NCBI GenBank assembly: GCA_963693365.1
Contig: CAVNZM010000005.1
Span: 8,722,334 to 8,786,333, forward strand
Origin: Amoebidium appalachense
Taxonomy: Eukaryota > Protista > Ichthyosporea
DNA length: 64,000 nucleotides
Direction: 5' to 3'
Shown here one piece after another: positions 39,462 to 52,959 of the stretch. Numbering within the stretch: the stretch's first letter is position 1; each line of letters starts with the position of its first letter. Made by a program: the position numbers and the translations under genes. A model generated the notes under the pieces. That model saw only the letters and a program-made list of their open reading frames with translations, searched no databases and was not told where the DNA came from.

Positions 39462-42400
39462 ATGCCGAACTTACGGGGTAGAGCCTCAGGGCCCGTAGGG
39501 CCCGGTGGCGAAACATTACGTGGGGTGTCGCCGCTTACTGCAGACTTGGACAGCATGATGCCTCTAGATGAGGACGCAGATTCCTACATCATAACCCCTA
39601 AACAGGTATGCATTGCGTCTTACCACCACTCCCTGTTTCGGTCGCAGGTACCGCTTTACTCTGAGTAGGCTATCCGTTTGCTTGTATGGCATCGATGCAT
39701 GTGTGCCCCTAACTTTGAGCTACGTAAGACCGACTGAACACAAAGGTACCTTCTCACATTAGGGGTTTGTGCTGGTGTGGGGTCACTCAGGTCGGATGGC
39801 AGGAGGACCTGGAGAGGAACCTTTTTGTATTCCGCGGGCACATTCAATTAACAGAAAAATCAATCAAACACGTGCGAAGGCTGGCTAGCAACCACATTGC
39901 TCAAACGATTTTGGTGAACGATACGGTTGACGTCCACGATAACGATGGGACGCGTTTCTCTGTTCCTATGACCCCGAAAGACCCTCTGTTAAAAACTTGG
40001 TATGATGAAATCAGGCATTTTCTGGGAGACAACGGCCTACCATGCAATCTCAAGATTTGCGGTCTCTCAGTTATAGGCAGCAAGCCCAACGGTTCACCCC
40101 AGGTGTGCCACTGGGATCACAATGTCCATGAGATATTGAAGAAACAAGCCCCATGGCAAGATATACCGTGGTCAATATTCTATCACGTCGAGGATGGGGG
40201 TACACTCATGTTATACAACGTCTCGTCGGATGCACTACATATAACGAGAGCAAGGCGCGTGAGTGGGTTCAAAAAACACGATCTGGTTCTTATGCGGGCC
40301 ACGCAGGCCCACGGGGGTGACACCTACCAGAAGAAACACATACGTATTTTTGCATACTTGGACAATGCCATTTTCCCACGATCTGAAAACACGCTGTACG
40401 GTGTGATAGAATTGCAAGTAAATCGCCCCCTCTAACCCCCCCCCCCCCCCCCCCCCCCCCCCCCCCAGCCCCGGCACACGCACACGCACACGCACACACA
40501 CACAACCTCTCTTACTCCCTCTCCCCATCCTCATTGGTTCTCCTGTTGATGCTTACAACAACACATTTAAACGGGATGCACAACACACACAAACAGAAAA
40601 CTTGCACATACAAAATGTTAACCAATGTAAGGCCCTCTGTGACCACGTGCCGTGGACTGGTGTGGATACTCACAAAACTGTGTATATGCAGGATGCCAAA
40701 CAAGGAAAGGCCGGCAAACAAACCCGAAAGCAAAAGATTCAGCCCACTGGCAAAGGCAAGACTAAGCAACTCAAGGGCATCCAGGCGGTAGGGGTTGGTG
40801 CATCTGACAATGCACCACTGCCACCTGCAGCAACGAGGACACCGCCGACTTTTTCTTCCAACAACACTCGAGGCAGCATGGTACGGCTGTCCAGCCCCCC
40901 CCCCCCCCCCCCCCCCCCCCCCCCCCCCCCCCCCCCCCCCCAACCACCACCACCCCCCCGGAAAAAACAAAAAAAAAAAATTACAAATACAAAAATTCAT
41001 GTTTTTGCTACTAAGACGTGTCACGTGCGCACAGGCAAAAAAAAAAAAACGAATAAACTTTATTATTTTTGCCATACAGATATGAAAGCAGTGCGATTTG
41101 GTTCAGGAGGGCATAAACCCCTGAAGAGAGAAGAACACTTACAGGATGCCAAAATTTCAATTATGCACGTCTTTCTGCGTAACCATTCGTCCCCGTGAAA
41201 AAAAAAAGCGAAGGTTCAAGTGATGCGGAATAGTTAAAGTATCACATATGTGCGTGGTCATGAAGCCGTACCCACTATTTTCCCTGCCTCAGGCATCAAC
41301 AAACCCTGGCAGTCAACAAGCAGGTGATGTGTTGACACAGCCCAAGGCAGCGGCGCAACAGGTGATCCCCCCCCCCCCCCCCCCCCCCCCCCCCCCCCCC
41401 CCCAAAAAAAAAAAAAAAAACCCTAAAAACCCCCAACCAACCAAAAAAGCAACCAAAAGGAATATAACTGCAGGAAGAAAAAGAAAAACAACGTACGCAC
41501 ACACTCACTACTAAATAGCCTGACACCAGAATTTAATGTTGATTGTAATGTTGGTTCAGTAACGTAAGTAGGATTGTAAGGTAAACTGTATCGGAAATGA
41601 TCAGACTTGATGTTTACAGTGTTTATTGCACCATGCCATATCACTTAGGCTTGGGCATATCACTTTGTCCATACATGGAGACTCGGCAATGTCTTAGGTG
41701 TCACTTACAATAGATGTATTGACCGCCCTGATAAGTTGTATTGACCATTTTCCCTGATGCAGGCACCAACAACACATGCCAGCCAACAAGTGAATTATGC
41801 GTCGGAAGAGCCCAAGGCAACGGGGCGGCAGGTTGTACCCCCCCCCTCCCCCCCCCCCCCCCCCCCCCCCCCCCCCCCCCCCCTTCCCCTTCACACACAA
41901 TCACACGCACACACCCCTCTAGAGCCTCCACCCCCAACTCCAGCTCCCCATCCAATGGCATGATGACGAAGGATATGACTAGTAGTATGCGTGTCAAACC
42001 CCCTCACAACCCCAACATAACTCTCTTCACGCAACCTCCGGATCCCACACCCCCCCCGCACCCTAAAGCACCCAAAAAACTTAACACACAAACACACTCA
42101 TAAACACACACGCACACACAAACACACACCCCAAATGCCCGATTTTTTGACCGGTTTCCAAATCAGGTTAGCGGCCGTGGCAGGAAGAGGAAAAGTGAGG
42201 CCGATACACTGGTCACACCCGAGCTACCGGCCAGCAAGCGCCGAGTGTTCAGCAAAGGTGACGTCAGCGAGGGAGAAGAGCTGGGCAGGACTGGGGATGA
42301 AGGCCATGATAGTGAGGCTGATAGTGCCAGAGAATTTGACACTCCCAAAAAGCGTCCTAGAAAGGTTAACCCCCTTCCCCCCTCCCCCCCCCCCCCCCCC

Positions 42401-51400: not shown

Positions 51401-52959
51401 CTAGGGAAAACTATGAACCATTCCCTTATTCCCCTCTAATACATGTAGATATAAAGACGTCTGCCCAAAGATATGACTGGCAATTAAGAGTGTATCCAAT
51501 CCATAGGTATCGTATCATTGATGCGCTTTCTTTTGATAAGTTTGGTTGCCTGCCTCAAGTTATAACTACTTACCATCACCTTTGCCACAGTGAACCCCCA
51601 ACCCCACGACAGCTTACCTGACACCCGGTCTCCTTCACCTGTGCCTGTCACCCAGTCTCCAACACCCATGGAGGAACACAAAGAAAATGGGGATGCCGGG
51701 GAAACGATGCACAATGTAGGTGAGCGCACTCAGTCACACACATGCATCATGCACACGCACACATGCACACATGCACACACACGGAGCTCACACCCCATAT
51801 TATACCAACCCTTGAACACATAAACATGCACCACATTCAACACACAAGAACAGAATCACACACGGAAGCTCGCACAAACATGCTCGTACACGCAAACATT
51901 TTCGTGAATTAACACGATCTACCGACCTACTGGTACGCTCTTTTAAAACATAGCACCGAGTTTTAGGTTTTCACACGAAACACGGCTACAGCTGATATTT
52001 GTTTAGAGTAACTTATACACTTGGCCACTGCCAGGAAGGAGATCAAGGCCCCTGTGAACAATGCCTCGCTAAATCGTACAGTGATATCAACGTGGGGTCA
52101 TTGGATAATGCTGAGCTGAAGTTCCAGTTAGCGAAGTCGCATTTGCGCACAGCATCCTTTTTTCCTGAAATGAGGCAGCTGTGGCAAGACCTGGACGAGG
52201 CGGAAGAGAAAATCGCTGCATCAGGTTACAATTTTTTTTCGCCCTCGTGGGATGAACAGCCGGTGGGCCCTGTAGATTACAATTCAATGGCAGCCCGTTG
52301 GTTTCCTTTTCACCGCCATAGCCCTACCGAACCGACGGCACCCTTATCTCCTGCTCGGGTGGTGACGTGGATGCAACGTATCGGAGAAAGCGAAGCTGCA
52401 AAACGCATTGATAGATTGTTAAATTCTTACAGATTGTATAACATACTTATATTCATTGAAAAGGCACCGAAGAAAACGGACACGGTCCCCCCCCCCAGTG
52501 GTTCCTCCCCCTAAACGGTTCAGTGATATCGACATGGGCTCACTCAGCCCCGACGATATCAGTCTTGAGTACATGCGGGCAGCATTTCGTGGCTCAGATC
52601 GATACCCGGAGATAATGCAGCTTCTGCGAGATGTCGATGCGGCGGAAAGGGTTATTACGTGGTCGGGTTATGTTTTCTCTTCTAAATCACTTGATTATTT
52701 AGAGAACGAACTGAAATCTTCTGATCGAAAATCAAAGGCGTACCGATTTTACACCTATACCAAAAATTGGTCAAAAACACGCGACACGGTGAAAAGGATG
52801 CTACGTGCTATCAACGAACCATGCATTGCCTTACGCCTTGACAACTTGTTGTCCACATACAGACTGTACAACTCAATTCGCCACATTGAAAAGCACGGGT
52901 CTTTATATCGCAGGACTGGAAGAATGCGACCGGAAGGTGAATGGTTTTACGGATGGTGA
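39462..52959 (+). CDS. ~2000-aa multi-exon fusion: 2OG-Fe(II) dioxygenase - ParB/Srx-like - beta-class N6A/N4C DNA methyltransferase - OTU-like protease - 2x unknown domain
   Basis: GT-AG exons with consistent phases and no stops: 39462-39605, 39791-40417, 40692-40880, 41293-41361, 41763-41831, 42167-42364, 42699-42794, 43325-43636, 43950-44162, 44293-44460, 44837-45082, 45582-45717, 46398-46920, 47293-47822, 48273-48440, 48921-49202, 49489-49590, 50027-50866, 51177-51245, 51591-51719. The last exon (~52009-52959) has an uncertain acceptor and a poly-C frameshift at ~52490. Confidence 0.75.
39791..40417 (+). CDS. 2OG-Fe(II) dioxygenase domain exon
   Basis: QVCHWD (HxD) ... QAHGG (distal His) ... 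HIRIFAYLD (2OG-binding Arg). Confidence 0.78.
43325..44162 (+). CDS. ParB/sulfiredoxin-like domain (two exons)
   Basis: LVR...VVDLKHSYATNG and TIDGNHRRIA. Confidence 0.7.
46398..47822 (+). CDS. Beta-class amino (N6A/N4C) DNA methyltransferase domain (two exons)
   Basis: LLNGD; LFIADIPTG...HWD (motif IV) precedes STVKPISAMRYLIREFSNHGDVVFDMLGGTGSVTEAA...R...ID (motifs X-I-II). Confidence 0.85.
50027..50866 (+). CDS. OTU-like cysteine protease exon
   Basis: VPDDGSCFYHAVA, RRWATHAEI, INGHYWPV. Confidence 0.8.

Follow-up and report, generated by a model that had tools for sequence, protein, structure and literature searches.

The stretch analysed here, referred to below as the window, comprises 64,000 nucleotides of the ichthyosporean Amoebidium appalachense (assembly GCA_963693365.1, contig CAVNZM010000005.1, positions 8,722,334 to 8,786,333 of the forward strand), and all coordinates are numbered from its first letter. 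It contains a spliced gene on the plus strand, running from 39462 to 53251 and built from 21 exons (E1–E21) in a model corrected by transcript data. An earlier note made from the letters alone had described this gene as a fusion of a dioxygenase, a ParB-like domain, a prokaryote-type amino-methyltransferase and an OTU protease, with 20 GT-AG exons in consistent phase encoding about 1700 amino acids (aa). That outline was borne out in part. When the exon coordinates are joined by script E1–E20 (39462–51719) give 1703 aa, open throughout, and the HxD..H..R, DGNHR, beta-order methyltransferase and D..C/W/HY motifs are all present in the spliced translation. Addition of E21 gives 1746 aa, or 1257 aa if E2 and E18 are omitted. 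The exons were placed by CAG acceptors and GT donors, and a poly-C run follows most of the donors. Each of the 20 introns is GT-AG; 12 have eight or more consecutive C starting no further than 20 nt from their 5′ splice site. The length of the internal exons is divisible by three in 16 of 19 cases, the exceptions being E12–E14, at the methylase. The model draws on five transcript-derived proteins in EukProt (P0001–P0005) and on assembled contigs of sequencing runs, of which X13 and X14 are taken to be RNA. The features of the locus are:

39462–39605 (+): exon 1, with the ATG, 48 aa; RNA-type contigs (X13, X14) splice it to exon 3
39791–40417 (+): exon 2, a phase 0-0 cassette of 209 aa; 2-oxoglutarate (2OG)-Fe(II) dioxygenase by prediction, mostly skipped
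40692–40880, 41293–41361, 41763–41831, 42167–42364 and 42699–42794 (+): exons 3–7, low-complexity linker with basic patches; E6>E7>E8 joins in RNA-type contigs
43325–43636 and 43950–44162 (+): exons 8–9, likely ParB/DGQHR-like domain (DGNHR; TIGR04172); joined in RNA-type contigs
44293–44460, 44837–45082 and 45582–45717 (+): exons 10–12, predicted helical region C-terminal to the ParB-like domain; helices in a low-confidence part of the AlphaFold model
46398–46920 and 47293–47822 (+): exons 13–14, beta-class amino-methyltransferase; motif IV DIPT at 46775–46786, motif I DMLGGTG
48273–48440, 48921–49202 and 49489–49590 (+): exons 15–17, Pro/Ser/Thr-rich linker; in P0001 and P0002
50027–50866 (+): exon 18, a phase 1-1 cassette of 280 aa; OTU-like protease by prediction, seen only in open reading frames (ORFs) starting at 49987 within intron 17
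51177–51245 and 51591–51719 (+): exons 19–20, exon 20 being optional; in P0001, P0002, P0004 and P0005
51996–52959 (+): two homologous units of about 134 aa within the last intron, in different frames and abutting close to a C10 run near 52490 (36% identity, E 2e-20)
53121–53251 (+): exon 21, terminal, with the stop; the end of all five EukProt proteins
53736–53961 (no strand): palindrome array, TATTCCGGAATA three times, candidate ParB-type binding array; 488 bp after the stop
40187–48086 (no strand): approximate extent of the internal deletion in another copy or allele of the locus (the window itself has the segment); contigs of X1 and X13

The five EukProt proteins are filed under the ichthyosporean Amoebidium parasiticum and match the gene letter for letter and block for block over E10–E21, so that it is not a chance chain of ORFs. 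A search with exon 14 returned a single cluster from this species at 100% identity, with three members of 783, 826 and 632 aa. These cover E10–E17 or E10–E15 and then end in the exon at 53121–53251, and the OTU exon is skipped in all three (P0001–P0003). A search with the OTU core gave another cluster, which belongs to the same assembled component and has two members of 359 and 402 aa (P0004 and P0005). Both start with a Met inside intron 17, pass through E18, are spliced to E19 and finish in the same last exon, without the methylase. The join of E17 to E18 is used by none of the five proteins, and none has methylase and OTU together. What was sound in the proposal of a single four-domain gene is therefore the one spliced gene; the transcript with all four domains was not seen, E2 and E18 being cassettes. 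The uncertain last exon, by which the earlier note had reached some 2000 aa, had to be abandoned, because the ORFs at 52009–52959 are used by none of the five proteins and the last exon lies downstream of where the gene had been thought to end. The two-unit block found there has no family match in Pfam, PHROGs or NCBIfam; it is possibly a third optional or decayed module. A 60-bp GT-AG stretch at 44912–44971 was considered as an intron and rejected, since it is unspliced in the transcript proteins and in the RNA-type contigs.

Read evidence for the 5′ half comes from four of 24 listed runs, covering 39300–45050. None of the listed runs is recorded as RNA; X13 and X14, which represent one sample, were taken as RNA by guess, and they have GT-AG joints and little or no depth in most intron bins. 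In both, E1 is joined directly to E3, skipping the dioxygenase, with contig depths of 451 (X13) and 28 (X14). Separate genes, with transcripts ending at the stop at 40435, are ruled out by this joint, as E1 splices across that position. Contigs of X13 and X14 also contain the joins E6>E7, E7>E8, E8>E9, E9>E10 and E10>E11, while the path E3>E4>E5>E6 has an indirect basis (RNA depth over the exons, and contigs that continue through). One X13 contig of 660 letters (depth 35.5) spans 39788–40417 plus 30 further letters, and its start and length are exactly those of E1>E2>E3 splicing in a 31-mer graph. The overhang of 30 letters is too short to count as a bridge under the rule used, so we only infer that exon 2 is included, in a minor isoform. 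Cover of exon 2 in X14 and X15 is nil or partial, which is uninformative on inclusion, and the exon is absent from the proteins of 367–2000 aa that were searched, which is weak evidence. Taken as a whole, E2 and E18 are frame-preserving cassette exons, optional and apparently skipped by most transcripts. The main product is probably a protein of 1257 aa comprising the ParB-like domain and the beta-class methylase, without dioxygenase and OTU.

Three further observations concern the same region. X13 and X14 both contain a sequence of 255 letters attached to the acceptor of exon 5 at 41763; the 16-base motif of it that was tested is absent from the window, and it may come from a paralogous copy with a different first exon. 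Run X1 (DNA), which has a single contig over 42347, is one base short in the A-run of exon 6 at that position; X13 and X14 agree with the window. This is either a strain difference or a homopolymer error. Exons 4 and 5 (69 bp each) together with their flanks (41263–41403 and 41733–41873) form a duplication of 77% identity.

The methylase is the best defined of the four domains. It matches Pfam PF01555 with 37.4 bits against a cut-off of 26.7 (E 3.5e-9), and has the beta order of motif IV (aa 949–952), target recognition domain and motif I (aa 1102). When its four nearest sequences are combined into a profile, the alignment with M.MboIIA reaches from motif IV through to motif I. In a Foldseek search, CcrM and M.MboIIA came out top for an AlphaFold model that was based on an alignment of 68 sequences and is confident in parts of the core alone (predicted template modelling score 0.47). 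In these comparisons the N4CMT structures rank lower than the bacterial N6A enzymes. Motif IV reads DIPT, which departs from the canonical (D/N/S)-P-P-(Y/F/W) and lacks the aromatic residue whose side chain stacks on the target base (PMC7544214). We took a census of the 82 domains that cover this motif among 149 relatives other than P0001 (the best 150 of 161 matches). Tyr or Phe occupies position 4 in 79, including the three closest relatives that cover the motif. The DIPT is not an assembly error, since the transcript-derived proteins carry the identical residue. Because the base-stacking residue is Thr, the enzyme is likely to be weak or inactive as a writer of N6-methyladenine (6mA) or N4-methylcytosine (4mC), contrary to the base writer that had been proposed. 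Motif I and the acidic residue of motif II are retained, and the fold would still bind S-adenosylmethionine (SAM) and DNA.

In a tree of methylases built from a short C-terminal alignment (about 75 aa) the domain falls in a separate clade of 20 members with a FastTree support of 0.96. Of the 10 members looked up, nine are metagenome singletons and one is a hemichordate protein. A metagenome scan with one relative (P0006) returned just two methylase loci, L001 and L002, both prokaryote- or phage-type. The clade profile gave only two weak matches in a viral scan (L003 and L004; 36–38% over about 45 aa), and exon 14 has no relative in IMG/VR.

Exons 8 and 9 likely encode a ParB-type DNA-binding domain. 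Members of the ParB/Srx superfamily have a nucleotide-binding G-x-x-R motif after a hydrophobic strand, and this is present as TIDGNHR (aa 578–584, with DGNHR at 580–584). The sole profile match is a weak one to TIGR04172 (DGQHR; E 0.0027, far below the cut-off). Single-exon queries gave no match to PF02195, there is no match in the PDB, and our own profile from four phage-type ParB sequences was not significant, with 75 of 1000 shuffles scoring as well.

In exon 2 the residues of a 2OG-Fe(II) centre are intact (H155-W-D157, H222 and R233). There is no significant Pfam match, nor any match to AlkB-type or TET/JBP families at E values up to 1; no match was found in PDB sequences, PHROGs, NCBIfam, phage genomes or IMG/VR. 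A single-sequence AlphaFold model was unusable (predicted local distance difference test score 34). Look-alikes found by a protein language model (ESM; 0.92–0.96) are unlabelled clusters, a 2OG-Fe(II) cluster, PhyH and 2OG-FeII_Oxy_3, and the top cluster is 83% viral among the six members with a phylum on record. The AlkB and TET/JBP families are not among the look-alikes listed, and on both counts an identity of this kind is rejected. The idea of a base eraser is thus left without family evidence, because the look-alikes are PhyH-type or unlabelled 2OG enzymes. What the exon resembles is a 2OG-Fe(II) dioxygenase, PhyH-type or other.

Exon 18 is a predicted OTU-like protease. The motif residues are present (D1453/C1456, W1520 and H1589), and its ESM look-alikes (0.93) are clusters with about 20% PF02338. 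There is no match to PF02338 itself and no significant Pfam match (Peptidase_C65 reaches E 0.25). The OTU core has only weak matches to viral OTU domains in the PDB (E 0.38 or worse) and none in phage genomes. OTU proteases usually have Asp or Asn two residues after the catalytic His; here this position is Trp. Thus among the folds anticipated in the earlier note the methylase was recovered above the Pfam cut-off, ParB by a single weak match, and dioxygenase and OTU without significant Pfam support.

Downstream of the gene, the 12-bp palindrome TATTCCGGAATA occurs at 53739, 53838 and 53949, with spacings of 99 and 111, all within 225 bp. When this region was shuffled 2000 times, no 12-bp palindrome ever occurred even twice. 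An inverted-repeat array lies beside the likely ParB gene, as in the accessory genes of giant transposons. There are also hints of other copies or alleles of the locus. One X1 DNA contig leaves exon 2 at 40186 and continues into sequence matching 48087 in intron 14, and in X13 one RNA-type contig has exon 1 followed directly by exon 15, with the frame lost. Together these indicate a second version of the locus, copy or allele, that is transcribed and lacks some 7.9 kb. The depth of X1 over exon 2 is 45–62 compared with about 20 elsewhere, and a variant lacking 1 bp is present in two contigs, hinting at further copies of exon 2; the depth is not a copy number.

Published systems offer close parallels, compared here through excerpts of the cited accounts. 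In the alga Ectocarpus the element Sola1-1_Ec32 carries a gene for a 1104-aa protein with ParB-like and N4C/N6A methyltransferase domains, similar proteins are reported in green and red algae, and a self-marking role was proposed (PMC12477816). As in Amoebidium, the ParB-like domain precedes the amino-methyltransferase in a eukaryote, and the length is near that of the 1257-aa product. The Ectocarpus protein, however, lies in an intact element of 21.5 kb opposite the transposase, and the Amoebidium gene differs from it in its 20 introns, its optional 2OG and OTU exons and its DIPT. Plavaka elements of Bostrychia carry PAG2 (PF01555 and SET) and, beside tandem inverted repeats, PAG3 (ParB and 2OG oxygenase), with self-binding proposed (10.1101/2025.02.11.637652). 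Here the likeness extends to PF01555, the ParB-like domain, a 2OG oxygenase without InterPro match and inverted repeats adjoining the ParB gene. Whereas Bostrychia has two genes, Amoebidium has one transcription unit, with the 2OG domain N-terminal and optional, an OTU but no SET, and only three palindromes. The Bostrychia elements may hold fused forms too.

Phage and prophage fusions of ParB_N with N6_N4_Mtase (for example P0074 and P0098; ParB-terminase loci, PMC4738411) share the order of ParB followed by beta-class methylase. They match PF02195 and have a canonical aromatic motif IV, whereas the Amoebidium ParB-like region is not matched by a profile built from them and its methylase falls in a clade apart from them. 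The eukaryotic N4C writers N4CMT of bdelloids (PMC8885841) and MpDN4MT1 of Marchantia (10.1101/2021.02.12.428880) are likewise prokaryote-type, beta-class, PF01555-like enzymes recruited by a eukaryote, but these have SPPY and shown activity where the Amoebidium enzyme has DIPT and is predicted from sequence. The earlier note knew of no description of the four-domain architecture, and we found none in the literature; this is weak evidence, the supplementary data for Bostrychia being outside the comparison. The portions compared of a review of eukaryotic amino-methylases contain no clade with the dioxygenase–ParB–methylase–OTU architecture (PMC4738411), and those of PMC12695648, 10.64898/2026.05.21.726589 and PMC10853773 do not mention the Amoebidium gene. 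The pairings of ParB with methylase and of ParB with 2OG oxygenase in eukaryotes are already in print. What is new is the holozoan host, a single transcription unit that unites modules of PAG2 and PAG3 type with an OTU, and the cassette-exon layout.

We lean, by a modest margin over even chances, towards reading the locus as one expressed 21-exon gene derived from the accessory cassette of a giant DNA transposon, with a ParB-like and methylase main product and with dioxygenase and OTU optional. The ParB-like domain would bind the three downstream palindromes and so mark the DNA of the element itself, a role also proposed for PAG3 of red algae. The methylase fold would bind SAM and DNA while being weak or inactive as a 6mA or 4mC writer. 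The dioxygenase would be the cassette's ancestral partner module, now confined to a minor isoform, and the OTU would be made mainly as a short separate ORF, or be a by-product of intron retention. The locus would then be a stranded remnant still transcribed by the host, and not a working four-enzyme machine. The transposon-borne origin suggested at the outset is plausible, because the same modules are accessory genes of giant algal transposons and because of the palindrome array and the deleted copy. Amoebidium itself also has giant repeats flanked by Plavaka (PMC11244446). Neither transposase nor element ends were found in the flanking sequence scanned. By analogy the gene works like a ParB-methylase accessory protein of a transposon, and membership in that class is plausible, though it would take a transposase, element ends or direct homology to establish it. 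The combination of writer, eraser and deubiquitinase in one protein is not what the transcripts carry, the extra enzymes being mostly spliced out and the OTU seen only as a separate short ORF.

Several points weigh against this reading. A scan of 362 flanking open stretches, limited to the 140 longest, turned up no transposase family, nor did eight chosen ones, and no terminal inverted repeats stand out among the 25 longest pairs shown, which are all simple repeats. The Plavaka-flanked giant repeats of the Amoebidium genome are intron-poor (PMC11244446), against 20 introns in the present gene. The likeness to PAG2 and PAG3 is one of described domains and not of compared sequences. The profile support for the ParB-like domain is weak, and Ser or Thr is present at position 4 of motif IV in three of the 82 relatives, so that DIPT need not be dead. 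The RNA evidence consists of one EukProt protein set and of contigs assembled from a single sample that is RNA by guess; isoforms cannot be ranked reliably by contig depth, and the term minor for exon 2 is approximate.

The leading alternative, which we still consider unlikely, is that the dioxygenase, the OTU and the two-unit block are unrelated mobile passengers in the introns of a ParB-methylase gene. Their inclusion would be splicing noise, and the OTU, if made, would be a separate protein of 359–402 aa with an internal start. The OTU ORFs do begin inside intron 17, the extra DNA depth and frameshifted variant over exon 2 suggest other copies, and Helitrons commonly capture OTU and 2OG domains as cargo (PMC11417382); the ESM look-alikes of both exons include giant-virus clusters. 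Set against this, the 5′ end of intron 2 has the GT-then-poly-C form of most introns of the gene, the GC content at third codon positions (0.55 in E2 and 0.54 in E18) is inside the 0.51–0.75 range of the other exons measured, and ParB with 2OG is a known accessory pairing. It is rather doubtful that the full 1746-aa protein is a real regulated isoform, for example a stage-specific one, which would write a DNA mark, oxidise a base or chromatin substrate and remove ubiquitin at the same sites. Both cassette exons keep the frame and have clean CAG/GT ends and putative catalytic residues, most internal exons are divisible by three, E1>E2>E3 inclusion is indicated, E18>E19 is spliced, and another ichthyosporean skips exons comparatively often (PMC6142364). 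Yet the absence of the E17>E18 join and of any methylase–OTU protein from the five proteins speaks against it, as do the eroded motif IV, the lack of an AlkB or TET family match and, more weakly, the want of an exon 2 protein.

Very doubtful, in our estimate, is a bolder version, whereby a close relative of animals has domesticated an entire transposon self-marking cassette as a single gene, with the skipping of domain exons as its switch. A constant, palindrome-anchored ParB-methylase core would gain a dioxygenase and/or a deubiquitinase in certain isoforms, and a functional DIPT would write a new, non-AMT1 6mA or 4mC mark. We give least credence to a gene from an endogenised giant virus, later intronised and domesticated. 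Giant-virus insertions are numerous in Amoebidium, and multi-exon chromatin genes lie in some of them (PMC11244446); the top ESM cluster of exon 2 is largely viral. However, neither exon 14 nor exon 2 has an IMG/VR relative, the viral matches of the clade profile are few and weak, the methylase groups with a clade that includes a hemichordate protein, and no viral marker genes are found among the flanking stretches scanned.

The recognisable neighbours of the gene are retroelements and an HMG-box gene. A Copia-like element with long terminal repeats (integrase, RVT_2) lies at 12422–16850 (+), a DIRS-like element (RVT_1), presumably with gag and tyrosine recombinase, at 19092–23463 (−), and a decayed element resembling a long interspersed nuclear element (RVT_1) at 28579–31714 (−). 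Head-to-head with the gene, at 31900–34990 (−), is a spliced-looking gene starting near 34880, with stops in its first exon and a broken ORF near 34650–34880. That exon has a Cys-Cys motif near 34810, which resembles some DNA-transposase N-termini, and the gene may be a decayed transposase. A Pfam match of the broken ORF to a small Cys-rich peptide family is sub-threshold and was taken as chance. Upstream of exon 1, 37896–38615 contains a tandem duplication of 579-bp spacing with 89% identity over 141 nt. A second cluster of AT-rich palindromes is located at 6900–7700, downstream of a spliced gene at about 3200–5050; eight perfect palindromes (12–22 bp) fall at 7032–7697, several with a common core, and a one-mismatch copy of a 14-bp palindrome is at 6908. 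The spliced multi-HMG-box gene at 55693–59025 (+) has a Lys/Ala-rich tail and an N-terminus resembling a mitochondrial targeting peptide; its role may be TFAM-like.

The significance of the locus is lower than first thought, since the methylase motif is eroded and the protein with four enzymes can be a minor product at most. Nonetheless, genes pairing ParB with methylase or with 2OG oxygenase are proposed self-marking tools of giant algal transposons, and the locus extends this class to a holozoan. The modules of two algal genes are joined here, along with an OTU, into a single transcription unit, cassette exons as large as whole enzymes occur in a single-celled relative of animals, and the three 12-bp palindromes supply a concrete candidate binding site. 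The host Amoebidium is culturable, with 5-methylcytosine and 6mA mapped. With such a site in such a host, the idea of self-binding and self-marking is directly testable in Amoebidium.

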